DNA from: a virus
IMG/VR virus record: IMGVR_UViG_3300045988_128110
Location: 1 to 64,000 of that record
DNA: 64,000 bases
Reading direction: 5' to 3' (one strand)
Shown: positions 6,670 to 40,176 of the stretch, in pieces
Layout: the number at the start of each line of letters is the position of its first letter
Position numbering within the stretch: position 1 is the first letter of the stretch
The notes under the pieces: model-generated
Told to the model about the DNA's origin: nothing
The model's input: only the letters and a program-made list of their open reading frames with translations
Database searches by the model: none
Translations under genes and position numbers: made by a program

Positions 6670-8154
6670 ATGTTTAAACCTTGTGGAGCTCTACTGACTG
6701 ATTTTTATAAACAATGTCATGCAGAGCAATATGACCCTAGCATCACTAAGGTAGTTTCTTACTATGTACCTCGTAAAACTAGGATTCCTGAATTTGATAA
6801 GGTAGTAGTTTTTGGTATTCAAGCATTTATTGAGGAGTATCTGATTGAATACATGAATGAAACTTTCTTTAGTCGTTCTTTAGAAGAAGTTATTGCAGAA
6901 TATGAATTTGTAATTTCTTCTACTATGGGAGCAGACCGTGTTAATTCGGATAAAATTAAAAAGCTTCATGAGTTAGGATATCTTCCTATCGAGATCTGGG
7001 CACTTCCTGAGGGATATAAAGTAGGAATGAATGTCCCCTGTATCGAGATTTCTAATACTAATCCAGAATTTGCATGGTGTACTAATTTCATTGAAACCTT
7101 GATGCTCTCTGAGCTTTGGTATCCAATGTGTGTTGCAACTGCTGTAACTAAATATCGTAGTATCGTAAATGATTTTTATTCTAAAACTTCTGATATTTCT
7201 GGTCGTTCTGCTATTTCTGAGTTCGGATTTAGAAGTTTAGTTGGACTTCATGGCGCTATTAAAGCTTCATGTGGGTTTTTGCTCTCTTTTAATAAGACTG
7301 CGACTATTCCTGGCATTATATATGCTTCAAAGTATTATCATACCCCAATGTCTGTAGTAGGTGGAGGTATGGCTTCTACTGAGCACTCCGTAATGTGTAG
7401 TTCTGCTGCCATTGATGGGGATGAAAAAGTTATGATTCGACGCCTCCTTACTGAGGTCTACCCTAATGGATCATTCTCTATGGTAAGTGATTCCTATGAT
7501 TACTGGAATATTGTCGATGAAATTCTCCCATCTCTTAAGGAAGAAATTCTCAGTAGAAACGGCACTTTGTATGTTCGTGGTGACTCTGGAGATCCTGTAG
7601 AAATTGTAACTGAGACAGTTTTCTCTCTTTGGGAGACTTTTGGAGGTACTGTCAACTCTAAAGGGTATAAAGTCTTAGATCCTCATGTTCGAGCTTTGTA
7701 TGGTGATGGTATCACTCAGTTACGTGCAAAACAGATTTATCAGATTTTGTACGATACGGGATTCTCTGCAGAAAATGTTGCACTTGGTGCAGGAGGATTT
7801 TCTATGCTTTCTTACATGGACGAGTTTGGAAATGTCGATATGTTCTCTCGTGATACATTTAATGTAGCAATTAAGTGTAGCTATGTAGAACAAACCATTG
7901 ATGGAAAAACTAAATCTATTATGGTTTACAAAGATCCTAAAACAGATTCAGGAATGAAGAAGTCCCATAAAGGATGCTGTGCTGTTTTCTACAACCATGT
8001 AACTGGTGAGTTTGATTGTGATGAGGGTATGACACTGAAAGAAGCTCATAATGAGCCTTTTAATTTACTTCGTCCTATCTTTTCAAATGGAAAAATGAGA
8101 GAGCAAACCACTCTCACAGAAATTCGTAGAACTCTTTGGAACGGAGAATTTTAA
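6670..8154 (+). CDS. nadV: nicotinamide phosphoribosyltransferase (NAMPT/NadV)
   Basis: LLTDFYKQCH N-terminus and the overall length and motifs of type II NAPRT/NAMPT. Confidence 0.75.
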   Translation: MFKPCGALLTDFYKQCHAEQYDPSITKVVSYYVPRKTRIPEFDKVVVFGIQAFIEEYLIEYMNETFFSRSLEEVIAEYEFVISSTMGADRVNSDKIKKLHELGYLPIEIWALPEGYKVGMNVPCIEISNTNPEFAWCTNFIETLMLSELWYPMCVATAVTKYRSIVNDFYSKTSDISGRSAISEFGFRSLVGLHGAIKASCGFLLSFNKTATIPGIIYASKYYHTPMSVVGGGMASTEHSVMCSSAAIDGDEKVMIRRLLTEVYPNGSFSMVSDSYDYWNIVDEILPSLKEEILSRNGTLYVRGDSGDPVEIVTETVFSLWETFGGTVNSKGYKVLDPHVRALYGDGITQLRAKQIYQILYDTGFSAENVALGAGGFSMLSYMDEFGNVDMFSRDTFNVAIKCSYVEQTIDGKTKSIMVYKDPKTDSGMKKSHKGCCAVFYNHVTGEFDCDEGMTLKEAHNEPFNLLRPIFSNGKMREQTTLTEIRRTLWNGEF

Positions 8155-8948
8155 TGGAAAAAGAATATAAAAAAATAATATCCTTCCTTAAGGATTACCA
8201 AACTCACACTAATGCTCGTGGTTATGTTCTGGGCATTAGTGGAGGGAAGGATTCTACTATAGTAGCTAAGCTTCTAGTGGATGCTATAGGAAAAGAAAAT
8301 GTATTAGGTGTTTTAATGCCTGATGGGGAGCAAAAGGATATCAGTGATAGTTTAGAAGTATGCAAATATTTAGATATCAGACATATACTAATAAATATTT
8401 CACATCCTTTTACCTCACTATTGAGTTCTATCGAAAGAACCACTCTAGAAAAATCCATAGATGTAGGAATTCCTAATCTTGTTTCAGATGGTTCCCCAAT
8501 TATAATTTCTGATAAAGCTTTAACTAATATTGCACCTCGCATTCGCATGGCAACTCTATATGCGATTGCTCAGTCTTTGGGTTACGGAGTAGCTGGAACA
8601 GGTAACAAGTCCGAAGCATTTATTGGATGGTGTACAAAATGGGGAGATATGGCTTGTGATATTAATCCAATTGCACACTTGACTTGTACAGAAGTTGTAA
8701 AACTGGGAGACTTCATGGAGTTGCCTTATAATTTAGTTCATAAAGTCCCTGCAGATGGATTAACAGGCAGATCTGATGAAGAAAATTTTGGATTTACTTA
8801 TCAAGAGCTTGATGTTCTCATTGAAAAAATGGAGCGATTAGATCGTACAGGACATCTTACGAGTCCATTTACTGAAATTGAATTACAAATCTTAAAATTA
8901 CATGAAGCTGCGTATCACAAAGATCATGTAATTAAAATACATTATTAA
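8136..8948 (+). CDS. nadE: NH3-dependent NAD+ synthetase (NadE)
   Basis: PP-loop GISGGKDST, then GTGNKSE and TKWGD motifs. Confidence 0.8.
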   Translation: MERRILMEKEYKKIISFLKDYQTHTNARGYVLGISGGKDSTIVAKLLVDAIGKENVLGVLMPDGEQKDISDSLEVCKYLDIRHILINISHPFTSLLSSIERTTLEKSIDVGIPNLVSDGSPIIISDKALTNIAPRIRMATLYAIAQSLGYGVAGTGNKSEAFIGWCTKWGDMACDINPIAHLTCTEVVKLGDFMELPYNLVHKVPADGLTGRSDEENFGFTYQELDVLIEKMERLDRTGHLTSPFTEIELQILKLHEAAYHKDHVIKIHY

Positions 8949-8949
8949 T

Positions 8950-9840
8950 ATGGGAAGCGGATCATGGAGTTCTAGCACATATAAAGCTTTTGCTGATAGC
9001 TATACTAAAAAATCCAGAGAAGAAATCTTTCATCAAAGATCTCTACACGAAGAAATGGATCTTACAAAAAGTAAGACACATATTCGAGAATCTAGAGATT
9101 CTGAGGAACACCCAGAATCTCTTCCAGTTTTCATTGCATTAGATGAAACTGGTTCAATGGGTTCAATTCCTGATAAGATGATCAGGGATTATCTTCCGAA
9201 GTTAATGGATTCTATTATTGATTCTATTGGAGTTAAACACCCTCAAATTCTTTTTATGGGAGTGGGAGATCATGAATGTGATTACTACCCGTGTCAGGTA
9301 GGTCAATTCGAATCTTCAACTGTTGCAATTAATCAGTGTCTCTCTAAAATTTATTTGGAGGGTCGTGGTGGAGGTAATAGTGGAGAATCCTACTTACTTC
9401 CTTGGATTATTGCAGGAAATCATACGTCAATTGATAGTTGGGAAAAGCGAAAGCAAAAAGGATTCCTTTTTACAGTTGGTGATGAACCTACTTTGACAAG
9501 AATAAGTAGGGGAACTTTGGCAGCTCTCACTGGAATGGAGTATGAGCGTGATTATACCTGGCAGGAGGCTTATGAACTTGCCTGTGAGAAATATCATGTG
9601 TTTCATATTCATGTTCGACATGGAAGTGAACATTATGATGAGGTAGTAGCTAAACAAATGAAAGAAATTCTTAGAGAAAACTTTATTGTGTGCAAGCCTG
9701 ATGAAGTTGTAGAAGCCATTTGTGAAGCTATGGGTAAAACTCTAAAAGGTAGCTCTTCAGTAATTGAAGAGATTTCTGCAGAAGGAACTGTAGAAAATAC
9801 AGAATCAAAACCTAATATATTTGACATACATCGACGATAA
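8950..9840 (+). CDS. vWA-domain protein (FIALDETGSMGS)
   Basis: DxTGSM MIDAS motif; a second vWA protein in the window. Confidence 0.45.
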   Translation: MGSGSWSSSTYKAFADSYTKKSREEIFHQRSLHEEMDLTKSKTHIRESRDSEEHPESLPVFIALDETGSMGSIPDKMIRDYLPKLMDSIIDSIGVKHPQILFMGVGDHECDYYPCQVGQFESSTVAINQCLSKIYLEGRGGGNSGESYLLPWIIAGNHTSIDSWEKRKQKGFLFTVGDEPTLTRISRGTLAALTGMEYERDYTWQEAYELACEKYHVFHIHVRHGSEHYDEVVAKQMKEILRENFIVCKPDEVVEAICEAMGKTLKGSSSVIEEISAEGTVENTESKPNIFDIHRR

Positions 9841-10934
9841 TGTATAATATTGTAGTGGGTTGTACGTTTGGCGACGAGGGCAAGGGTCAAGTGACTCATG
9901 CCCTCTGTTGCGACGCTAAAAGAAAACATTTAAAACCTCTAGTTGTTAGATTTTCTGGAGGGCATCAAGCAGGGCACACAGTAGTTACTTCGTCTGGAAC
10001 AATGCATATATTTTCTTGCTTTGGGTCTGGAACATTTGCTAAGGCACCTACTTATTGGACGAAACAATGTGTTATGGATCCACTACAATGGATGCGGGAG
10101 CGAGAGGAGTTAGATTTCCTAGGATGTAATATCCCTATCCAATATTTTGATCCATATGTACAAATAACAACTCCTTTTGATGTAATGTTGAATTCTGAAA
10201 GGGGTAAAGGTTCTACAGTAGGGAAAGGAATATGGGAGACTATTCAGAGACAAAGAGAAGGATTAGCTTTATATGTAAAAGATTTAGCTTTTCCTCAAGT
10301 TGTAAAAATGAAGCTCCGATTAATTAGAGAATGGGCGGAAGATAGACTCCAGTTTAAGGAAACTTATTCAAGATTTGCTCATGTTTTCGATAACTTAGAT
10401 TCTTTAGTACATACTTATTGTAAGATTTTTTATCCCAATATAGTATTGGAGGATACGTTATCTAAATTAGCATGGAAAGAAAAGACTTCTGTGATATTTG
10501 AGGGTTCTCAAGGAGTACTTTTGGACCCTAATATTGGATTTTCACATGAATATACTACCCCACTTCCATGTTGTCCATCGTGGAACAATCTCCCATTCTT
10601 TTTAACTGATGATCAACTAATATTTAATTTTGTATATAGATCTTATTTAACAAGACATGGTAAAGGGCCTGTTGGAGATTCTATATTTAAGGAGATTAAT
10701 AACCCTTATGAAACAAATTTAAATAATCCTTTTCAAGGAGAATTTCAAACTTATGAATTCAATAAGGAATTAGTCTTATATGGAATTGATCATGTTAAAT
10801 CACACTTTAATCCTGAATATAAAGTAAGGTTGATTGAAACATGTTGTGACATATGTGTAGGACATGACTTAGGAATTCCTTATAATTACTCTATCAAAAC
10901 CTGCAAAAAGAATTTTGACTCTGTATGCAAATAA
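9840..10934 (+). CDS. purA: adenylosuccinate synthetase-like protein (PurA family)
   Basis: GDEGKGQ P-loop and a SGGHQAGHT motif, matching the PurA GDEGKGK / GGHNAGHT signatures. Confidence 0.6.
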   Translation: MYNIVVGCTFGDEGKGQVTHALCCDAKRKHLKPLVVRFSGGHQAGHTVVTSSGTMHIFSCFGSGTFAKAPTYWTKQCVMDPLQWMREREELDFLGCNIPIQYFDPYVQITTPFDVMLNSERGKGSTVGKGIWETIQRQREGLALYVKDLAFPQVVKMKLRLIREWAEDRLQFKETYSRFAHVFDNLDSLVHTYCKIFYPNIVLEDTLSKLAWKEKTSVIFEGSQGVLLDPNIGFSHEYTTPLPCCPSWNNLPFFLTDDQLIFNFVYRSYLTRHGKGPVGDSIFKEINNPYETNLNNPFQGEFQTYEFNKELVLYGIDHVKSHFNPEYKVRLIETCCDICVGHDLGIPYNYSIKTCKKNFDSVCK

Positions 10935-14513: not shown

Positions 14514-14776
14514 TGAAAGAGATTAAAATTAACAATAACATTGAAGAAGATCATGTTCCTTTATATAATCCTGAAGGTAAGTTAGTTGGAATTATAGAAA
14601 ATGAACTAGCTTTTAATGATGTTCGTATTCAAATCATGGAAAACAAACTAAGAGGGTACTATATTGTATATAAAGGTCAGGTATGTCGAATAGATATTCA
14701 TGGAGAATTAGATATTTGGCCTAATGACTTATATAGGACAAATGTAGACCAACTATCAAAATTATTATGCTTTTAG
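14513..14776 (+). CDS. hypothetical protein (87 aa)
   Basis: Complete ORF with an ATGA start/stop overlap. Confidence 0.35.
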   Translation: MKEIKINNNIEEDHVPLYNPEGKLVGIIENELAFNDVRIQIMENKLRGYYIVYKGQVCRIDIHGELDIWPNDLYRTNVDQLSKLLCF

Positions 14777-14777
14777 T

Positions 14778-14966
14778 ATGAAACAAATAAAAACATACTG
14801 TCCAAATTGTGGTAGGGAAACTATTCATGTTATTTATACAGAAGATGGATATGGGGCTTCTGGTGTAGCAAGAATTTTTTCAAGTTTACTTTCCCTTGGA
14901 ACGTCTAATTTAGCTTGTACTACATACAGTAAATGTATTAGTTGTGGAAAGACTAAAGAATTATAA
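14778..14966 (+). CDS. small zinc-ribbon protein (CPNCG...CISCG)
   Basis: Two CxxC pairs. Confidence 0.35.
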   Translation: MKQIKTYCPNCGRETIHVIYTEDGYGASGVARIFSSLLSLGTSNLACTTYSKCISCGKTKEL

Positions 14967-15231
14967 AATGATTAATGACCAAATTAAAAAGTTAGCTAAT
15001 AAAAAGATTCCATTATATAATAACTCTTCTAGTTTATATGATATTTTGGATTGGCTACGGGAGAAAAAATTCCTACATGTAGAGATACAATGGTATCCTC
15101 ATGGTTGGATGTTTGTTATTTATAAAATTGATTCTCAAGAGGATGAACCATATGATACTTTCTCTGAAGTATATACTAGTTATCTAGATTGTTTAGAAGC
15201 TGGAATTATAAGAGCATTAAATCTTATATAG
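14944..15231 (+). CDS. hypothetical protein (95 aa)
   Basis: Complete ORF. Confidence 0.3.
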   Translation: MERLKNYKMINDQIKKLANKKIPLYNNSSSLYDILDWLREKKFLHVEIQWYPHGWMFVIYKIDSQEDEPYDTFSEVYTSYLDCLEAGIIRALNLI

Positions 15232-15421
15232 TAAGTTAAAGTACAATGACAAAATGAGAATACAAGGAAGATACTTTTACTCCATATCAAGGTGAGGATT
15301 TTATTGATTGGCTAAATTTACACGGAGATCAAGGATGGGAACTTATACAAGAAGTTGTTATACCTCAATTTGCACCTTTATATAAATACCTCTGTATATT
15401 TAAAAGAAAAATTCAGGAATA

Positions 15422-15853
15422 ATGAGAACACTTCTTTGGGTAGATGATGCTCGTAATCCAATGGAAGATGATTGGATGAATTTTAGTCCAATTGGTAGAA
15501 ATTGTAAAGTAATATGGGCTCAATCTTACCAAGAAGCAATTGATTTTCTTGAGAAAGAATGGCCTGATGCAATTTGTCTAGATCATGATTTAGGGGAAGA
15601 GAAATCTGGATATGATATAGCTAAGTATATTGTGGATCGGTGTATTGATGAGGGTAAAAAACTTCCTGAGTTTGCTAGTCAGTCTGCTAATCCTGTTGGA
15701 AGGGAAAATATTATTACATTATTGAGCAATTATAAGAGACATGAACTTCTAGATCATATTCAAAAAGTTATTGATTATAAACATGATTGGCGGAAAGCAG
15801 TACAAGAAGGAAAAAGTTTGCCAAAATGGAATGGAAAAATTAAAGTCAATTAA
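15422..15853 (+). CDS. hypothetical protein, possibly a CheY-like receiver-fold domain (LLWVDD ... LDHDLG)
   Basis: Acidic N-terminal DD pair and an LDxD motif at about residue 55, as in receiver domains; weak. Confidence 0.3.
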   Translation: MRTLLWVDDARNPMEDDWMNFSPIGRNCKVIWAQSYQEAIDFLEKEWPDAICLDHDLGEEKSGYDIAKYIVDRCIDEGKKLPEFASQSANPVGRENIITLLSNYKRHELLDHIQKVIDYKHDWRKAVQEGKSLPKWNGKIKVN

Positions 15854-15856
15854 TTT

Positions 15857-16069
15857 ATGACACAGTATATTTATATACATACAAACAAATTTTCTAGGTG
15901 GTTCCTTTTAAGATATCTTAAAAAGAAAGGTTATACTTTTAGAAATAACATGACTCAGGAGCATATTTTTATTCATCCTTATGGCAGATATGCTTTTTGC
16001 ATGTGTGAGAAAATCATAGCTTATGAGGAAGTATGGGCTTGGGTTGTTTTTAACAGTATATTTAAATAA
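15857..16069 (+). CDS. hypothetical protein (70 aa)
   Basis: Complete ORF. Confidence 0.3.
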   Translation: MTQYIYIHTNKFSRWFLLRYLKKKGYTFRNNMTQEHIFIHPYGRYAFCMCEKIIAYEEVWAWVVFNSIFK

Positions 16070-16198
16070 TTTTAACAATGCTTTACTGTAATATATGTGG
16101 ATCTCCTTTACGATATATAGGAGAAACTAAGGATGCTAATGGAAATGTTATAAGCATCTATTCGTGTCCAAAATGTAACAAGCTAGTTTATATTTAGT

Positions 16199-16579
16199 AT
16201 GTTCTTTCTTAATTTAGCTGTATTAATTTTTTGTGGAGCAGTTCTTGGATATGAAAGACAAAAAACTAACAAGGTAATTGGAATTCGTTCCGTTGTTCTA
16301 CTGATGTTAGGATCTTTTATATTTACATATATCTCTACAAGAATAGGTGGAGACCCTTCTAGAGTAGCTGCCCAGATAGCTTCTGGAGTTGGCTTTATTG
16401 GTGCTGGAATCATTTGGAAGGACAAATCCACTAATATAGCTAACTTAACAACAGCAATTCTCATTTGGGTTATTGCAGCTCTAGGAAGTATGATTTCTAT
16501 TGGATTACTTGCTGAAGCAATAGTAATAACAGGAATAATTTACATTGTCCTTAGATTTAATTTTTTAAAGGACGTCTAA
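16199..16579 (+). CDS. mgtC: MgtC/SapB-family membrane protein
   Basis: GYERQ, a following GIRS motif, ASGVGFIGAG, NLTTA..IW..AA.G; these match the MgtC N-terminal domain signatures. Confidence 0.65.
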   Translation: MFFLNLAVLIFCGAVLGYERQKTNKVIGIRSVVLLMLGSFIFTYISTRIGGDPSRVAAQIASGVGFIGAGIIWKDKSTNIANLTTAILIWVIAALGSMISIGLLAEAIVITGIIYIVLRFNFLKDV

Positions 16580-16585
16580 AGGTTT

Positions 16586-16670
16586 GGAGAGTAATCCTTG
16601 ATGGTGATAGGGCTTGCCTGCTAAGCAATGTGTGCCTTTCTGGCATGTGGTTCGATTCCACTGCTCTCCG
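16586..16670 (+). tRNA. tRNA-Ser (anticodon GCU), class II
   Basis: Acceptor ggagagt/gctctcc, discriminator G, anticodon loop ctgctaa, long variable arm (tgcc/ggca), T-arm with ttcgatt. Confidence 0.7.
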
Positions 16671-16694
16671 CAAATAAATTAATATTAAAAGGAT

Positions 16695-16889
16695 ATGGAA
16701 TTTAAAGTAATCAGAATCACTTTTGATAACGGAACAGAACAGGTTTTTAATTTTCAACATGTAAGAGATTTCAGTTATAATGAAAAAAATAAATCTGCAA
16801 CTATAACTATAAAAGGAAACGGACCAAATTGGGATACTCAGATATTTACTAATAATATTACTGAATTATATGTTTCGAATCTAGAGTAA
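16695..16889 (+). CDS. hypothetical protein (64 aa)
   Basis: Complete ORF between tRNA genes. Confidence 0.3.
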   Translation: MEFKVIRITFDNGTEQVFNFQHVRDFSYNEKNKSATITIKGNGPNWDTQIFTNNITELYVSNLE

Positions 16890-16897
16890 TTAAGAAT

Positions 16898-16980
16898 GCC
16901 TCTGTGGTGGAATTGGTAGACACGTGTGCCTTAGGAGCACATGGACCTAGTCCATGCAGGTTCGAGTCCTGTCAGGGGTA
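16898..16980 (+). tRNA. tRNA-Leu (anticodon UAG), class II
   Basis: Acceptor gcctctg/caggggt, D-arm gtg-gaattggtaga-cac, anticodon arm tgtgc-cttagga-gcaca, variable arm tggac-cta-gtcca, discriminator A. Confidence 0.7.
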
Positions 16981-17007
16981 CTTAATAATATTTAAAACTA
17001 ATATAAA

Positions 17008-17592
17008 ATGAATATTGAAAATTTTTCAACGGCAAATCTTCCTGGTCTAGCAGACCTAGGAGATACTAAAAATTGAGCGAGTATTAAAGGGGATGATCCA
17101 GGGCCTAAAGGGCCTATAGGTACTGCGGGATGTTCAGCAACAGGTGTAGGCAGTGGAAATCTTACTTCTACTACCTCAAATTGATACATCCCTTCAACTG
17201 GAATCTATACTAATAATATCATTGTAGGCTCTAGTAATCCGTATGCATATGGAACAATTAAAACAGAAAGACTTCCTATGAGTGAAGAACTTTATTTATA
17301 TATAACTGGAGGTAAATCCTGTATTTCTACAGCACCTCCTACTTGGAATAGTCAGGAGAACTGTCTTTGGCATGCAAAAGGTTCCCGAGTACTTTCTATA
17401 GAAGGTGATTATGGACTATCTCGTCTTATAAAATCTTATATTGGTTCTGAATTAGATATAATTTACACATATCTTACTATAAATGGATTTAATGTTTATG
17501 CTACTATTTTAGGGCCTTCTGGAGAACTATTTGTAGAAAAGGCACCTATTAAAGGTAAAGAGGATCTAATTCATAGAAATCGAAAGAAATAA
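17008..17592 (+). CDS. hypothetical protein with a short collagen-like Gly-X-Y repeat (KGDDPGPKGPIGTAG); two in-frame TGA codons
   Basis: ATG at 17008 lies in frame with tracked ORF 17278-17592 through two TGAs (90 codons upstream, counted); the minus-strand ORF 16998-17189 is a shadow. Confidence 0.45.
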
Positions 17593-17603
17593 TAGAAAGA
17601 ATT

Positions 17604-17693
17604 GCGCCTGACCCGAGGCGGGGGGGAGGTCTTCAAAACCTCTATGCTGTTGGTCCATCTTCAGCCCTGTGGGATCGTTACCTACCAGGCGTG
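17604..17693 (+). tRNA. candidate TGA suppressor tRNA (anticodon UCA) with an atypical 90-nt architecture (long variable region, short D-region, A54/U58-swapped T-loop, discriminator G)
   Basis: Acceptor gcgcctg/caggcgt (7 bp incl. one GU), anticodon arm (g)gaggt-cttcaaa-acctc(t) with UCA at 17633-17635, T-arm gtggg-atcgtta-cctac, 25-nt variable region; no standard 76-nt tRNA can be fitted. Confidence 0.5.
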
Positions 17694-17709
17694 CAAATAA
17701 GAAGTAAAT

Positions 17710-18294
17710 ATGACTATTAAGGAACAATGTATACATTTACGGGAAGAAGGAAAAACTTATAACGAAATTTGTACTATTCTACACTGTTCTAAAAGTACAG
17801 TTGCATATCATTTGAATACGACTACTAAGATAGCAGCTACAAAATGACAAAGCGAAAACAAATGTAAGGATTGAAAGTACAAATTTATGCATAGTTGTTC
17901 CAACTTTCTAAATCGAAGAGATAGATCTAAACATATCAGAACAATGTGTTCAGATTGAAATAAAAAGTTTAGAACTCACGTATCAGAGTTCAATAATAGA
18001 TATAAAAACAAAGGAAATTTGGCTAATAAATGTTATTACAAGGATGTGTTAACATATCTTAATGGAACTAATGTTAAATGTTATTTAACAGGTACACCTA
18101 TTGATTTGACAAAAGATGATTATTGTTTTGATCATATAGTTCCTGTATCAAAAGGAGGAACTAATGAATTATCAAATCTAGGAGTAACTATTCCCTCAGC
18201 TAATTATTCTAAACATGATTTAACTATAGAGGAATATTTGTCTTTATGTAAACAGGTTTTAGAACACCATGGGTATACTGTAAGTAAAACTTAA
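17710..18294 (+). CDS. HNH homing endonuclease with an N-terminal helix-turn-helix; three in-frame TGA codons
   Basis: HTH GKTYNEICTILHCSKSTVAYHL; HNH motif CYLTG...DHIVPVSKGG...N; ATG at 17710 is in frame with tracked ORF 18019-18294 (103 codons, counted). Confidence 0.65.
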
Positions 18295-18298
18295 AGAT

Positions 18299-18802
18299 AT
18301 GACTTATAAACAAATTTTTATTGGAGGGATTACTATTCTGGGTATGTATATGCTACTGGGTTTGATGTTAAATTTCCCATGTAAATCAGAAGTGCCTCCA
18401 GTAAACTCTCCTGTAATTATTACAGAAGATTGTGATTCTCTTACAGAGTGGCAAGTTTTTATCATGGCACTTGTTGAAGTAGAATGTGAGAGAAATCCAA
18501 AAGTAAAATCTAGTAAAAATGCAATAGGCCCATTCCAAATCACTAAAATTTATGTTGATGAAGTTAATAACTTATATAACACTAGTTTTGTGTTAGAAGA
18601 TGCTTGGGATCTTGATAAAGCTTTAACTATGTTCGAAATGATGAATGACCATTATAATCCAACTAGAGATATTGATAGAGCAATTAAACTACATAATCCT
18701 GGGGCTGGTAAATGGTATGGGAAAAGAATAAAAGATCGTATGGAACTAATTCGATTTAGTGAAGCACTAAGATTCAAAATTGTTGAACTTTACGATAATT
18801 AA
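18299..18802 (+). CDS. lytic transglycosylase (SLT-domain) endolysin with an N-terminal signal-anchor
   Basis: N-terminal TM helix, then VECERNPK...SKNAIGPFQI, matching the SLT E...GLMQ(I) catalytic motif. Confidence 0.55.
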   Translation: MTYKQIFIGGITILGMYMLLGLMLNFPCKSEVPPVNSPVIITEDCDSLTEWQVFIMALVEVECERNPKVKSSKNAIGPFQITKIYVDEVNNLYNTSFVLEDAWDLDKALTMFEMMNDHYNPTRDIDRAIKLHNPGAGKWYGKRIKDRMELIRFSEALRFKIVELYDN

Positions 18803-18803
18803 T

Positions 18804-18905
18804 ATGTGGTGGTTGATTGGATTACTATTAGCTATTGCTATCATACTTAGTCCTATGTTATGGGCTATTTATAAACATATAACGTATGAGAAGTTGAATA
18901 ACTAA
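18804..18905 (+). CDS. small membrane protein (33 aa), possibly a holin- or antiholin-like lysis cassette component
   Basis: MWWLIGLLLAIAIILSPMLWAIYKH, a single TM helix directly after the endolysin. Confidence 0.3.
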   Translation: MWWLIGLLLAIAIILSPMLWAIYKHITYEKLNN

Positions 18906-33262: not shown

Positions 33263-34306
33263 ATGCAATTTACATTAGGACCGACCACTGTTACTAAAGA
33301 ACTAATTCTGAACAGTGTAAGTGAAGAAACTTTAATGGAGCATTATTTAGGAGTCCCTGTGAAAAAGGGGCTCCTAAAATCTCCGTTAAGACAAGATAAT
33401 AAACCCACTTGTGCTTTTTATAGAAACAAGAAAGGAGATCTTATATTTAAGGACTTCCGTGGTGATTTTTCAGGTAATTTCATTTCGGTTGTAATGTATA
33501 AATTTCAATGCTCTTACGGAAAAGCCTTAAATATTATTGCTAATGACTTTGGAATAGTCTCTCGACCTAAGCTGCAAGTTAATCCCCCTCTTATTAAATA
33601 TACAAATAAAAAGTTTGAGGAAACACAAGAAGCTATTATACAAATAGAAGTGAAGGATTTTGAGCAGTATGAGTTAGATTGATGGCTAAAATTTGGAGTT
33701 ACTAGAAAGATATTAAGGAAATTTAGAATATTTTCCTGTAAGAACGTTTTTCTAAATGGAAACATATTTCATCTTCATAAAGATAAACAATTAGTTTTTG
33801 GGTATTTTGGAGGTATTCGAGAAGATATTGAACGCTGGAGAATATATTTTCCTGGCAATACAAAGTATAAATTTATATCTAATTGAAAATCTTTTAGGTT
33901 GCAGGGAGCACATGCTCTTCCCAAAGAGGGAGGAGAATATCTTGCAATTACTAAATCTTTAAAAGATGTTGCATGTTTATATAGTTGTGGTATTACAGCT
34001 ATAGCCCCAATTTCTGAGAACTGTTTTGTTACAGAGGCTCAATTTGAAAGGCTAAGTAAAAAATTTAAAAAAATTATTCTTTTTTACGATAATGACTCTG
34101 CTGGAATAACTCACATGAATAAGTTTAGAAAACAATTTCCAGATGTTTATGTGTTATGAATCCCCCGTCATTTTGGCGCGAAAGATATTTCTGACTATTA
34201 TAAGAAGTATGGTAGGGAAAAAACATTGAACTTAATCGAACAAGCTAAACTTAAGGTTAATGCCGAAGAAGAAAGAAGAAGAAAGTCCAAAGAAGAAGAG
34301 GTCTAA
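33263..34306 (+). CDS. DNA primase (TOPRIM, DnaG-like) with five in-frame TGA codons
   Basis: TOPRIM KIILFYDNDSAG, an N-terminal Cys/His putative zinc-binding region; ORFs 33263-33682 and 33899-34159 are joined only by TGAs; TAA at 34304-34306. Confidence 0.65.
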
Positions 34307-34655
34307 ATCATACTCTAGAACTAAAGGACATTCATATGAAACTAAAATAGCTAAGGAACTTAGGGAATTAGGATATGAAGGAATTGTTACCTCCAGGTCT
34401 GAGTCTAAATCTACTGATGATAAGAAAGTAGATTTGATTGATACTCAAAACCAGTTTCCTTACTATGTTCAGTTAAAGTGTACTCAGAATACTCCAGCAT
34501 ATCATCAAATAAGTGCAGAGTGTCCATTAAAGGATAAACCATTTATTTTAATCTGAAATAAACAAGTTAAAAAGCAAACTAATATTTGCTCAGCTGGAGA
34601 AGTTGTTATTATTCCTAAAGAAGAATTTTATAAATTAATTAAATTGAAAGAGTAG
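34260..34655 (+). CDS. PD-(D/E)xK Holliday-junction-resolvase-like nuclease (Hjc/RecU-like); one TGA
   Basis: HSYETKIAKELRELGYEGIVTSRS...VDLIDTQ...YVQLK; the tracked ORF continues through a TGA to TAG at 34653-34655. Confidence 0.45.
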
Positions 34656-34679
34656 AAGAGGGATCTTCTACTCTTTTTT
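34651..34679 (+). terminator. rho-independent terminator (agtagaag-agggat-cttctact followed by T6)
   Basis: 8-bp perfect stem plus a T6 run at the end of the replication gene block. Confidence 0.65.
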
Positions 34680-34684
34680 GTTAT

Positions 34685-35191
34685 ATGAAAACATTATTTG
34701 TATTTCAAATTCAATCATTTACTAATGTGGTTACAAATAGTTCTAGTGAGCTGTTTGTATTTACTGGAACCACTGGAGTTGTAAGTGATATGTTAGATTC
34801 TAATGTTCCAGGATGGGAGCACGAATATGATGACCCACAGTCAGTACAGGATTTAAGTCCCAACTCTTTAGAAACGTATCTTTCTTATGCTTACGACAAT
34901 TATGATCGGAACTGGGACAATAAGCGAATAACTAGAGAGACAAGTAGACAAACTCGTTGGGCTAGAGAATTTAATATTGACCCAAATGAACTTTACAAAA
35001 ACTATAAAGAATGGGATCCAAATTCTGAAAAATGGGAAATTTCTCAATTACAACTTAAAGAAGGTTGGGATAAACTCATTAAACAAAAACTTAATTCAAA
35101 CTTAGTTTTTGTTTTCTCAAAGGGGGAAAATCCAGATTGGGAGCGACAAGAAAAGATGATGACCTTTGGTTCCCGCTATCATTTAGGATAA
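34685..35191 (+). CDS. paralog 1 of a tandem small-protein family (conserved VTNSSSELF motif)
   Basis: Shares (V/I)(V/I)TNSS(S/T)E(I/L)(F/Y) near the N-terminus with the two downstream ORFs. Confidence 0.45.
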   Translation: MKTLFVFQIQSFTNVVTNSSSELFVFTGTTGVVSDMLDSNVPGWEHEYDDPQSVQDLSPNSLETYLSYAYDNYDRNWDNKRITRETSRQTRWAREFNIDPNELYKNYKEWDPNSEKWEISQLQLKEGWDKLIKQKLNSNLVFVFSKGENPDWERQEKMMTFGSRYHLG

Positions 35192-35192
35192 T

Positions 35193-35525
35193 ATGAAAAT
35201 AAAAATAAATATACAATCTGAATCGGATTTAATTACAAATTCATCTAGTGAGATCTTTTGTGCTATATCTTCTTTATCTGAAGATTCAATAAAGATGGTT
35301 CAGGAATATCTTAATTCATTCCTTCCTGATGGTGTTAAGTATTCAAGTCCTTCTGATATCTTTACAATTGATGAATCTAGATATGTTATTACGTTTCAAA
35401 TTAGTTACTCAGAAGACCATGAAAAGACTGGAAGACAGATGTACACTTTAATAAAACAATTATTAAAGGAGCATTTTCCAGGGGATAATTCATTTACTGT
35501 TGAAGATGGAGAGAATTATAATTAA
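35193..35525 (+). CDS. paralog 2 of the tandem small-protein family (ITNSSSEIF)
   Basis: Same motif; IQSESDLITNSSSEIF. Confidence 0.45.
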   Translation: MKIKINIQSESDLITNSSSEIFCAISSLSEDSIKMVQEYLNSFLPDGVKYSSPSDIFTIDESRYVITFQISYSEDHEKTGRQMYTLIKQLLKEHFPGDNSFTVEDGENYN

Positions 35526-35787
35526 AATACAATCTGTTTCTGATGTAATTACAAACAGCAGTACAGAGATTTATACGGTTTGTACAGAATATACTTTAGA
35601 TAGATTAAAAGATATTGTTAATAGTATCTTAAAAATCGCTGATTCTACACTTACAGCAGATGACTTATTTACCTTTGAGTTAGAGGAAGAACCTGATGAG
35701 TACTATAACTATTATGATAGAGGTTATAAAGTTATCCCAAAAAAAAAGAAAACTACACTGAAGCTGCCAAATATTTATCTAATATAA
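35500..35787 (+). CDS. paralog 3 of the tandem small-protein family (ITNSSTEIY)
   Basis: Same motif; IQSVSDVITNSSTEIY; the exact start is uncertain (overlaps paralog 2). Confidence 0.4.
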   Translation: MKMERIIIKIQSVSDVITNSSTEIYTVCTEYTLDRLKDIVNSILKIADSTLTADDLFTFELEEEPDEYYNYYDRGYKVIPKKKKTTLKLPNIYLI

Positions 35788-35830
35788 TGGATATATTTGA
35801 ACAAAATGCTTCTTTTGATTCTTAATAAAA

Positions 35831-36739
35831 ATGAAAGATTGGAAAGCATGGGGAATTAAGAAAAGAGTATTCCCAGATAAGAATTATAATGCAATTTGGC
35901 ATGATTTAAAGACTGTTCGATTAGGTTCTGGGCAAGCTAAAGAATTAGATTACCCAGAATTCTACGATGTTGGAATTAATACTCTTTGTAATCTAGGATG
36001 CCCATTTTGTTATGTTGGAGCCACATCTAAAGGAGTAAATCATGATCATATATGTGAAAAGGCTAAATTTTTCTTTGGCAACATGACTGAGAATGAGAAA
36101 CCTTTTCAGATTGCAATTGGTTCTACAGGAGAACCTACAATTCATCCTGAGTTTTGTGAGTTTCTCAAAACAATATATAGTTTGGGGATCGTTCCTAACT
36201 ATACAACTAATGGAATCTCAATAGCCAAATATGATGGTAATGCAGAAGAAATTTTAGCAGCCACTTCCAAATATGTAGGAGGAGTTGCTGTTTCAGCAAA
36301 TACATGGAATCCAGAAATAGATTCTGCTTGGAGAAGTGCTGTAGTACTTCTGCATGAATTTGGGAACACTAATATCAATATTCATTATATAATTAGTGAT
36401 AAAAAGTCTGTTGATGACTTTATTAAAATTTATAATCAATATAAAGATATTGTTCTATACTTTGTACTACTTCCTTTGATGCCTTCTGGTCGGTCATCAA
36501 ATAAATACTCGCAAGAAGCATTTGAATATCTTCTTGAACAAGATATAGACTTTAAACAAGTTGCATTTGGAGCACATTTCTATGACTCTTTATGTAATCA
36601 AAATAAGTTAGGATGCTATTTATATCCTCCTGAAAGTCTATCTAAAAACCTTATTTTAGGAGAGAAGATTATGGTTACTCCAAGTTCCTTTAATCTTACT
36701 CCTATTAAGGAAATTAATTTCAATTATGAAAACTTGTAA
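35831..36739 (+). CDS. radical SAM enzyme (CxxxCxxC), possibly with a partial SPASM/twitch-like C-terminal Cys motif
   Basis: CNLGCPFCY cluster-binding motif, IGSTGEPTIHPEF SAM-binding GGE-like motif, C-terminal CNQNKLGCYLYP. Confidence 0.7.
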   Translation: MKDWKAWGIKKRVFPDKNYNAIWHDLKTVRLGSGQAKELDYPEFYDVGINTLCNLGCPFCYVGATSKGVNHDHICEKAKFFFGNMTENEKPFQIAIGSTGEPTIHPEFCEFLKTIYSLGIVPNYTTNGISIAKYDGNAEEILAATSKYVGGVAVSANTWNPEIDSAWRSAVVLLHEFGNTNINIHYIISDKKSVDDFIKIYNQYKDIVLYFVLLPLMPSGRSSNKYSQEAFEYLLEQDIDFKQVAFGAHFYDSLCNQNKLGCYLYPPESLSKNLILGEKIMVTPSSFNLTPIKEINFNYENL

Positions 36740-36917
36740 AGTAATTTTTAGAGATGAAACTTTAGCACAAGACAGTATCGTGGATTGTTGATTAAACGAT
36801 GTTGGAGATTTAGAGTTTAAATTGTACTTTGATCCTCCAGTAACAGAAACTTCTGACCTTGGTTCATTAGCTGGACAGTTATGCTATAGTTTCTGTAAAG
36901 CTTTAAAGGATGAATAA
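36726..36917 (+). CDS. small hypothetical protein (63 aa) with one TGA
   Basis: ATG at 36726 to TAA at 36915-36917. Confidence 0.3.
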
Positions 36918-39411: not shown

Positions 39412-40176
39412 ATGAAAGAAAAAATTAGATATGATTTAGTTCCAGCACATGGGATTAAAGAAATATCTCGTGTCCTAACTAGAAAGTTGGACACATATGA
39501 AGAAAATCAGTGGAAAAAAGGGATGAAATGGACAGAAGTTCTTTCATCTCTTAAGAAGCATCTCAACGAATTTGAGATGGGAAATGATTACACTGAAGAA
39601 GGACTGCTCAATATAGCAGAGGTAGCCAATAATGCATTAATTCTATGCGAATTCTATCATATTTATCCCCAAGGGGATGATAGAATTATGGCTCCCACAA
39701 CAAAACCAATAGTTGCCTTAGACTTAGATAATGTCATCTTTGATTTCAATGGTGCATATGAAGCTAAGTTTGGCACTAAAATGAATCCTTATTGGAAAGC
39801 TAATTATGAAATGTCAGAGCATTTAAAGCAGTTAGAAAAAGATAAGGATTTTTGGGTAAATATCCCAATTCTACATAAACCTTGTTTCGAAGTAGATTAT
39901 TATATAACTGCTCGGAATATTCCAGTTGAATGGATTGAAGAAAGTTTACAAAAGAATGGCCTTCCATGTGCTCCAGTTCATGTTGTCCCTTGGGATCAAA
40001 GTAAATTGGCACATTTACGTGATTTAAAAATTGATATATTTATCGACGATAAATATGAAAATTATAAGGAAGCAACTGATGCTGGAATCTTTTGCTACTT
40101 AATGGATGCTCCTCATAATCAATACTATAATGTTGGTCATAGGAGAATTTATAACCTTGATATACCAATTAAATAG
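39412..40176 (+). CDS. 5'(3')-deoxyribonucleotidase (HAD, NT5C family) with an N-terminal helical extension
   Basis: VALDLDNVIF DxDxV phosphatase motif I and IFIDD motif; the N-terminal 90 aa is unassigned. Confidence 0.5.
   Translation: MKEKIRYDLVPAHGIKEISRVLTRKLDTYEENQWKKGMKWTEVLSSLKKHLNEFEMGNDYTEEGLLNIAEVANNALILCEFYHIYPQGDDRIMAPTTKPIVALDLDNVIFDFNGAYEAKFGTKMNPYWKANYEMSEHLKQLEKDKDFWVNIPILHKPCFEVDYYITARNIPVEWIEESLQKNGLPCAPVHVVPWDQSKLAHLRDLKIDIFIDDKYENYKEATDAGIFCYLMDAPHNQYYNVGHRRIYNLDIPIK

Follow-up and report, generated by a model that had tools for sequence, protein, structure and literature searches.

A 64,000-nucleotide (nt) stretch of phage DNA (positions 1 to 64,000 of IMG/VR record IMGVR_UViG_3300045988_128110; hereafter the window) carries a four-gene module in which three tandem open reading frames (ORFs) for small proteins sharing a near-invariant loop motif stand directly upstream of a gene for a radical S-adenosylmethionine (rSAM) enzyme. 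We propose, with a probability of about one in two, that the rSAM enzyme modifies the invariant loop of its partner proteins, i.e., that the module unites an enzyme with its protein substrates. We infer this role, along with the modified residue, the chemistry and the tasks of the matured proteins; the substrate role is suggested by one conserved enzyme being accompanied by variable partners that share a single loop, by a linkage that holds in both search directions, by the co-divergence of the two sides, and by the probable descent of the enzyme from a maturase lineage.

The module and its three partner proteins

The partner genes, all on the + strand, are ORF1 (34685–35191; 168 amino acids (aa), isoelectric point (pI) 4.9, of the ‘HLG’ subclass), ORF2 (35193–35525; 110 aa, pI 4.5, the commonest ~100-aa form) and ORF3 (35506–35787; 93 aa from the ATG at 35506), and they are followed on the same strand by the rSAM gene (35831–36739; 302 aa). 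The motif loop lies at 34712–34756 in ORF1 (QSFTNVVTNSSSELF), 35214–35258 in ORF2 (QSESDLITNSSSEIF) and 35530–35574 in ORF3 (QSVSDVITNSSTEIY), each on the + strand, and a six-frame regular-expression scan of the whole window found the T-N-S-S-[ST]-E core at three sites only, namely in these three ORFs. The initial annotation, made from the letters alone, had described three tandem paralogs with a common motif, and the comparison bore this out: by BLASTP, ORF2 matches ORF3 with E=1e-8 (39% identity across 57 aa) and ORF1 matches ORF2 with E=2e-4, while a three-way alignment has Q-S, T-N-S-S and E invariant. Judged from their sequences, the three are true paralogs. ORF1 combines the N-terminal motif with a C-terminal ...ENPDW...FGSRYHLG end that also occurs in 240-aa and 108-aa subfamilies, and within its motif Asn replaces the near-invariant Asp of the family, which is present in 206/212 members, all close relatives included.

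The third paralog, first called at 35500–35787, exists as an ORF, with changes at both ends. Its start is more likely the ATG at 35506 (MERIII...), as in its relatives, than the TTG at 35500 that yields the 95-aa call, and its last 15 residues (KKKKTTLKLPNIYLI) are the product of a +2 frameshift in an A9 homopolymer at 35739–35747 (+). The closest relative (L012, 99.1% identity over 12.9 kb) has A7 instead of A9; the A7 version of ORF3 reads ...NYTEAAKYLSNIMDIFEQNASFDS / ...IPKKENYTEAAKYLSNIMDIFEQNASFDS, with a stop 6 nt 5′ of the rSAM start, and in the window this ancestral frame would terminate at the TAA at 35823–35825. Relatives carry A6, A7, A8, A9 or GAAGAAA at this site, giving differing C-termini, and these differences could be sequencing error or true length variation. 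ORF3 is also a recombinant, with its first 21 nt corresponding to the third paralog of four-copy relatives, the remainder to the fourth, and the join lying just 5′ of the motif.

Linkage of enzyme and partners

All 80 IMG/VR loci found via the rSAM protein (52–100% identity) have two to five same-strand motif ORFs adjoining it, upstream in 78 loci and downstream in two (L037 and L042). Many of these loci are close relatives and the counts are not independent; a better measure is given by 25 rSAM clusters at 85% identity together with five distant GTDB loci. When all neighbours were clustered, the partner family was found in 24/25 rSAM clusters, the lone exception being a cut-off 3.8-kb contig on which the first matched rSAM residue is number 98, at 864 nt from the contig end. 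The runner-up neighbour, a MazZ-like gene, accompanied 17/25 clusters, which reflects synteny inside one phage group. In a scan of GTDB genomes, motif neighbours stood beside every full-length rSAM relative down to 36% identity, and the linkage was retained at 36–47% rSAM identity in unrelated gene contexts (L090, L091, L092, L093 and L095), with the distant contigs binned with Mycoplasmatota, Cloacimonadota, Bacteroidales, Methanobacteriaceae and Woesebacteria metagenome-assembled genomes. Some distant loci have a single copy, which makes the enzyme with one partner the smallest unit.

The reverse search, which used only the motif, written as a degenerate DNA pattern, gave 79 new loci, of which 55 contain the rSAM gene. 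The remaining 24 all run out within 1.5 kb beyond their final motif gene, so every informative locus has the enzyme. Two divergent members from the profile search (L272 and L274) likewise have the rSAM gene directly downstream. The two sides also co-diverge, in that the motif variant H-S-F-V-D...TNSST[TV] is paired with a divergent rSAM clade carrying CEGxCPWC (L092 and L272). Modules have one to seven partners overall (three in the window) and occur in hundreds of large uncultured phages; table-11 translation was used throughout, and in some loci paralog counts or lengths may be one gene off or shortened by TGA recoding. Across rSAM clades, no gene besides the partners is conserved, and linked genes for a protease or a transporter are absent. 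One distant locus (L003) has a NAPRTase gene and an isochorismatase-family gene (PF00857) beside the module.

The TNSS-loop protein family

We propose the ‘TNSS-loop’ partner proteins as a new family of small acidic proteins that adjoin this rSAM clade and carry an N-proximal h-x-h-[QH]-S-x-[SV]-D-h-h-T-N-S-S-[ST]-x-h-[FY], a definition under which, on sequence, all three window ORFs fall. The motif is conserved across related phages, a point that the initial annotation had proposed to check: 212 unique proteins align to the consensus h-x-h-Q(211/212)-S-x-S-D(206/212)-h-I-T-N-S-S-[S/T]-E-h-[F/Y], which begins ~5–15 residues from the N-terminus of proteins 95–243 aa long. Each serine position of the motif is encoded by both AGY and TCN codons, and all synonymous codons are used for Q, D, T, N, E and F; since synonymous codons vary freely, selection on the motif acts at the protein level, and a DNA-level element was rejected on the same ground of unconstrained codon choice.

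The family is large, with 1,344 partner clusters at E ≤1e-3 in a profile search of 1.84 billion representatives, a count that, for clustering at 50% identity, is a lower bound. The top 150 matches are all small (54–197 aa), and 148 of them align from within the first 15 residues, the other two being C-terminal fragments. Among 131 representatives, mean column identity is as low as 12%, with N-S-S invariant and S, D, I, T and E at least 90% conserved; minor variants are TNSSTT, TNSSTS, TNSSTV and Q to H, and this alignment has no conserved Gly in the motif or elsewhere. The partners are strongly acidic, with a median pI of 4.5 and 94% below 5, compared with 29% of the window’s other ORFs.

Searches for known relatives returned nothing that would assign the partners. 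The three window ORFs and distant members match no entry in Pfam, NCBIfam, PHROGs or PADLOC; a Pfam scan of the 131 diverse partners gave no family; and the 131-member profile found zero matches among PDB sequences up to E 10. No relatives were found in cultured phage genomes by blastn or tblastn, a weak match in the UvsW gene of Synechococcus phage S-CAM1 being judged spurious, and no relevant paper on the motif or on phage rSAM maturases came out of full-text literature searches.

Structurally, the AlphaFold2 model of ORF2 (predicted local distance difference test score (pLDDT) 74.8; predicted template-modelling score (pTM) 0.70) is a small α/β fold with the predicted order β1(2–7)-loop-β2(19–27)-α(30–41)-β(64–71)-α(76–94)-β(102–106), and fold searches returned generic two-layer α/β sandwiches only. 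The motif covers the predicted β1–β2 loop, and no block of the model has lower confidence than ORF2 residues 11–20 (pLDDT 56 vs 81–89 in the neighbouring blocks). A conserved loop predicted with such low confidence would fit a segment that takes its shape from a binding partner.

Many members align along the full 100-aa domain. Regions 3′ of the motif fall into ~19 groups, nine of which recur in at least nine sequences each; the group set that includes ORF1 has a common C-terminal ...N-S-I-P-x-W...[RY]-H-L-G, and another, which includes ORF2, a common ...F-G-x-D-N-Y-x-I-x-Y. Arrays are varied mixtures of ~10 recurrent C-terminal families, their order differs between phages, and the copy number is two, three or four among near-identical phages (rSAM identity ≥97%), changing through recombination at the motif boundary. 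The bodies also outpace the enzyme in divergence, with partners at 53–61% identity where the rSAM proteins are at 78%, and at 25–45% where the latter are at ~60%. This cassette-like turnover suggests a role in an arms race.

The radical SAM enzyme

A CxxxCxxC rSAM protein directly downstream of the paralogs had been named from the sequence alone, and profile searches agree: the protein passes the PF04055 gathering score in Pfam (33.1 vs 29.5 bits), its CNLGCPFC (35987–36010, +; residues 53–60) supplies the CxxxCxxC ligands of the [4Fe-4S] cluster, and its predicted partial TIM-barrel fold is that of the superfamily. The architecture comprises a three-strand N-terminal extension (residues 10–31), a partial (β/α)6 core and a conserved, Cys-free C-terminal region with the blocks LLPLMxSGRS, FGAHF, YPPESxSKN and ITPSSF, and further conserved blocks are QIAIGSxGEP, VPNYTTNG, GGVAVS and NIHYIIS. 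The invariant ITPSSF strand at the C-terminus (residues 281–287, ~36671–36691) resembles the ITNSSSExF of the partners.

The initial annotation had also seen a possible auxiliary Cys motif (C265 and C272), which did not withstand comparison: both residues are missing from many homologues, and C53, C57 and C60 are the sole invariant cysteines in alignments of 15 and of 42 sequences. There is likewise no sign of a SPASM or twitch auxiliary cluster, with no PF13186 or TIGR04085 match and no invariant Cys outside CxxxCxxC, nor of a recognition element (RRE) for ribosomally synthesized and post-translationally modified peptides (RiPPs), with no PqqD match in Pfam and an N-terminal extension of three strands without helices.

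Matches to NCBIfam models are confined to the core and all far under their cutoffs, the best being tungsten-cofactor maturase, TrsS, NirJ1, Tes, MftC and viperin. No family model for QueE, NrdG or a methylthiotransferase is at or near its cutoff, and these identities were rejected. The combination that the initial annotation had set against its own reading, a housekeeping rSAM enzyme beside mutually unrelated small ORFs, was thus found on neither side, the NrdG2 model reaching 20 bits against a cutoff of 131 and the paralogy being significant. A viperin-like (pVip) identity was rejected as well: NF038283, whose cutoff is 180 bits, reaches 25.8 bits, over residues 51–163 only, and the PADLOC pVip match (E=3.6e-9) spans only residues 49–163.

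Against solved structures, the rSAM family profile reaches GDGT-MAS only (39.7 bits, residues 48–138), and the best structural neighbours are RiPP maturases. The best explanation is that the enzyme belongs to a peptide- or protein-maturase lineage and has lost its SPASM domain. It has at least 1,500 homologous clusters in a collection of 5.8 billion proteins, and of the clusters for which a long contig is recorded, many lie on contigs of 100–255 kb.

In several relatives the rSAM gene is split after QIAIG (residue ~97, at the SAM-binding GxxGEP motif) by an insertion of 1.2–1.5 kb (L026, 4772–5990; L027; L033; L093, 4750–6196; L094). The insertion in L093 encodes a 330-aa GIY-YIG-type endonuclease-like ORF and that in L026 holds degenerate remnants only; an Rfam search of the insertion found no intron family.

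Comparison with known systems

Evolutionarily, the nearest cellular relatives are bacterial SPASM rSAM proteins of the MftC/PqqE/AhbD-NirJ group, at 30–38% identity over residues 42–221 and with the AIGSxGEPT and VPNYTTNG motifs in common. Unlike the phage enzyme, these relatives, e.g., in Rhizobium sp. (L124, 5881–6915), keep the SPASM domain (TIGR04085, E=1.3e-7) and lack the phage-type N- and C-terminal regions, and the bacterial chromosomal SPASM rSAM matches have no TNSSSE-type neighbours. On the same Rhizobium sp. chromosome (L124, 2451–6915), rSAM-SPASM relatives stand beside a SMEK-domain / Avs2-like NTPase and two small ORFs, which suggests that they belong to a defence-island system.

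The sole relatives in cultured phages are T4-like rSAM-SPASM proteins (phrog_7293; Citrobacter phage Miller gp165 and Vibrio phage D479), at 26–28% identity. They share part of the N-terminal extension with the enzyme described here, whereas they are ~385–400 aa long, have a SPASM domain, and show no TNSSSE proteins in their flanks. In Vibrio phage D479 a 132-aa protein starting MKIRNGFVSNSSSSSF / MKIRNGFVSNSSSSSFVIT is encoded 1.4 kb upstream of the SPASM-type rSAM homologue (L001, 2140–2538), and its first 19 residues match phrog_7397 (E=2.6e-4). An extension of the system to the T4-like SPASM clade through this protein (SNSSSSSF) was rejected, as hhalign aligned 15 columns only and a search of 5.8 billion sequences showed the protein to be an orphan; as an unconfirmed lead, it may be a far-removed TNSS-loop analogue.

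The structurally closest enzymes differ from the phage system in several respects. SkfB and SuiB (PDB 6efn and 5v1q), both rSAM RiPP maturases, share only 14–17% sequence identity with the phage enzyme and carry auxiliary Fe-S clusters (twitch or SPASM), with an RRE in addition in SuiB, whereas the phage enzyme lacks an RRE and conserves three Cys only; SkfB and SuiB act on short peptides, at Cys or Lys-Trp, while the substrates proposed here are predicted folded proteins with a T-N-S-S loop. Pyruvate formate-lyase activating enzyme matches the phage rSAM more weakly than the RiPP maturases do and acts on glycyl-radical proteins, whereas the phage loop has neither Gly nor RVxG; a glycyl-radical enzyme activase was rejected, the partners having no RVxG-type Gly loop. 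An anaerobic sulfatase-maturating enzyme was likewise rejected, the phage system showing neither the target motif of such enzymes, (C/S)xPxR or (C/S)xAxR, nor their two auxiliary clusters.

A precedent for rSAM enzymes that mature a protein effector is the bacterial HXS anti-phage system, in which HxsB and HxsC are the rSAM enzymes and HxsA the effector (PMC13128918). As in the phage module, the matured protein carries a short Ser-containing motif and the setting is phage–host conflict. HXS is, however, bacterial, and has two SPASM-type rSAM proteins plus HxsD, a His-Xaa-Ser repeat motif and a periplasmic effector, in each of which the phage module differs; the sequence resemblance lies in the rSAM core only, with the HxsC model (E=4.5e-6) matching solely the bacterial relative. 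What is known is an rSAM enzyme with cognate ribosomally made partners, and what is new is a phage-encoded, SPASM-less form with a large unannotated family bearing an invariant T-N-S-S loop.

Proposed function and alternatives

Functionally, the module would consist of a single rSAM enzyme and a variable set of one to seven small acidic α/β proteins, whose near-invariant loop between strands 1 and 2 would be the enzyme’s docking and modification site. The enzyme would abstract a hydrogen atom from a residue of the invariant T-N-S-S core, the best candidate site, and the post-translational change so installed on the loop would mature the partner, after which the fast-evolving, shuffled bodies would perform differing tasks. 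Most plausibly, these tasks lie in host takeover or counter-defence, because the partners are acidic, turn over fast and are encoded in a replication and nucleotide-metabolism block. The fuller picture, in which the modification of the Thr-Asn-Ser-Ser loop is unprecedented and made without auxiliary clusters, and one enzyme activates a set of shuffled takeover or counter-defence effectors, we put forward tentatively.

Several points weigh against a substrate role. The motif has no Gly, no Cys and none of the known rSAM targets ((C/S)xPxR, RVxG, or the Cys of sactipeptides and ranthipeptides), and the enzyme has neither an auxiliary cluster nor a conserved Cys that might serve as hydrogen donor or electron conduit, which excludes the best-understood maturase mechanisms. 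As an element of the predicted β1–loop–β2 fold, the motif could instead serve the partner’s own ligand binding or catalysis, and partners acting as enzyme subunits would explain the gene linkage equally well.

The subunit idea is the alternative that survives best, although we consider it unlikely. Here the partners would be interchangeable subunits or adaptors whose loop docks on the rSAM enzyme while the body recruits the target that the enzyme modifies, be it a host protein, a nucleic acid or a nucleotide. Co-divergence and the strictness of the linkage suit it as well as they suit a substrate role, and so do the clade-specific N- and C-terminal regions of the enzyme, missing from bacterial SPASM relatives that align over residues 42–221 only; the likeness of ITPSSF to ITNSSSExF hints at strand mimicry or exchange, and the surrounding genes serve nucleotide and DNA metabolism. 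It is improbable that the partners instead bind or carry a small-molecule product of the enzyme as carrier, sponge or sensor, with the loop, rich in Ser, Thr, Asn, Asp and Glu, as a ligand-, phosphate- or metal-binding site. That arrangement leaves two to seven divergent paralogs per genome and the shuffling of their bodies unexplained; the viperin and MoaA matches reflect the common core only, with family scores far under the cutoffs, and no known ligand-binding family matches the partner profile.

T4 internal-protein loci are tandem sets of rapidly diverging small acidic proteins with only an N-terminal segment in common. The overall look of the module, and its copy-number change by recombination, recall such loci, and the N-terminal motif might then be a sorting or processing tag (for capsid targeting, as in the T4 internal proteins, or for a protease or injection) whose adjacency to the rSAM gene is chemically meaningless. 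We give this little credence: the linkage is two-way, independent of gene order and kept in unrelated contexts at as little as 36% enzyme identity; according to the model, the motif lies inside the fold and is no detachable peptide; and the module sits among replication and nucleotide-metabolism genes, not among structural ones. Finally, the initial annotation’s comparison with RiPP-like or protein-modification cassettes stands as regards the strictly conserved pairing of tandem partners with an rSAM enzyme, whereas a classical cassette, in which the small ORFs are leader–core precursors cleaved and exported as bioactive peptides, is barely credible despite the tandem paralogs with constant N-terminus and variable C-terminus ahead of an rSAM gene whose closest structural neighbours are RiPP maturases, since the partners are not peptide precursors but proteins of 95–243 aa that are predicted to fold (pTM 0.70) with the conserved segment as a loop within the domain, and RRE, SPASM and twitch domains and linked protease and transporter genes are all missing. 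The module is RiPP-like in logic at protein scale, yet it is no RiPP cassette. Of the known systems, its workings would come closest to those of a leader-guided maturase that serves several substrates.

If the enzyme does modify the loop of its partners, a minimal enzyme with a single cluster would be performing a novel radical SAM reaction, on a Ser/Thr/Asn loop. The module would then be the first system for protein maturation of this sort that phages encode and that is widespread, and a phage-encoded, protein-scale counterpart of leader-guided RiPP maturation. It would also provide a functional handle on more than 1,000 clusters of phage ‘dark matter’ proteins, from a module that is abundant in large uncultured phages, several of them from human-gut assemblies. 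Practically, a short invariant tag and one enzyme could be turned to site-specific protein modification. Even if the partners are subunits, a strictly coupled and unannotated rSAM–partner pair merits characterisation.

Genomic setting and genetic code

A terminator-like hairpin at 34646–34677 (+), with a 14-bp stem followed by a T run, ends 8 nt 5′ of the ORF1 ATG and is the module’s upstream boundary; the preceding gene ends at 34655 under translation table 4. The module is located in a replication and nucleotide-metabolism block away from the structural genes; it is preceded by DnaB, primase and a resolvase-like gene and followed by a nucleotidyltransferase and the MazZ-like gene. The 171-nt gap 3′ of the rSAM gene (36739–36910) contains a small-ORF remnant (…LNDVGDLEFKLYFDPPVTETSDLGSLAGQLCYSFCKALKDE), an intact 63-aa version of which is found in L008 (9793–9984), the 5′ part of the window copy being interrupted by stop codons. 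Further downstream, 38008/38095–39408 encodes a Cys-rich protein of 437–466 aa with no family match, which in L008 also lies beside the nucleotidyltransferase.

The phage reads TGA as a sense codon. A ‘split’ primase at 33263–34306 becomes a single 347-aa ORF under table 4, with TGA at Trp-like positions; across the whole window, table 4 gives 62 in-frame TGA vs 235 TGG and raises the residues in + strand ORFs of at least 100 aa from 14,719 to 18,889; and a tRNA with anticodon TCA lies at 17604–17694. The same recoding is seen in the relatives L008 and L274, and TGA recoding in gut phages is already known (bioRxiv 10.1101/2021.08.26.457843). Elsewhere in the window, the ORFs called with table 11 are therefore broken up, whereas all four module ORFs have TAA stops and zero in-frame TGA, so that their boundaries hold despite the recoding. 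TGA-free coding as a sign of early expression was considered and set aside, as 12 TGG and 0 TGA in the module compare with a genome-wide TGA share of 21% at p ~0.06, which is not significant.

Elsewhere in the window, 9840–10934 encodes a short adenylosuccinate-synthetase homologue of 364 aa (PF00709; phrog_1211, ‘2-aminooxy adenylosuccinate synthetase’) that is PurZ-like, and the MazZ-like gene (39412–40176) fuses a dATP/dGTP diphosphohydrolase N-domain to an NT5C-like domain, the two together hinting at 2-aminoadenine (Z-base) DNA. The window also carries NAD salvage genes, with a nicotinamide phosphoribosyltransferase at 6670–8154 and an NAD synthase at 8136–8948.

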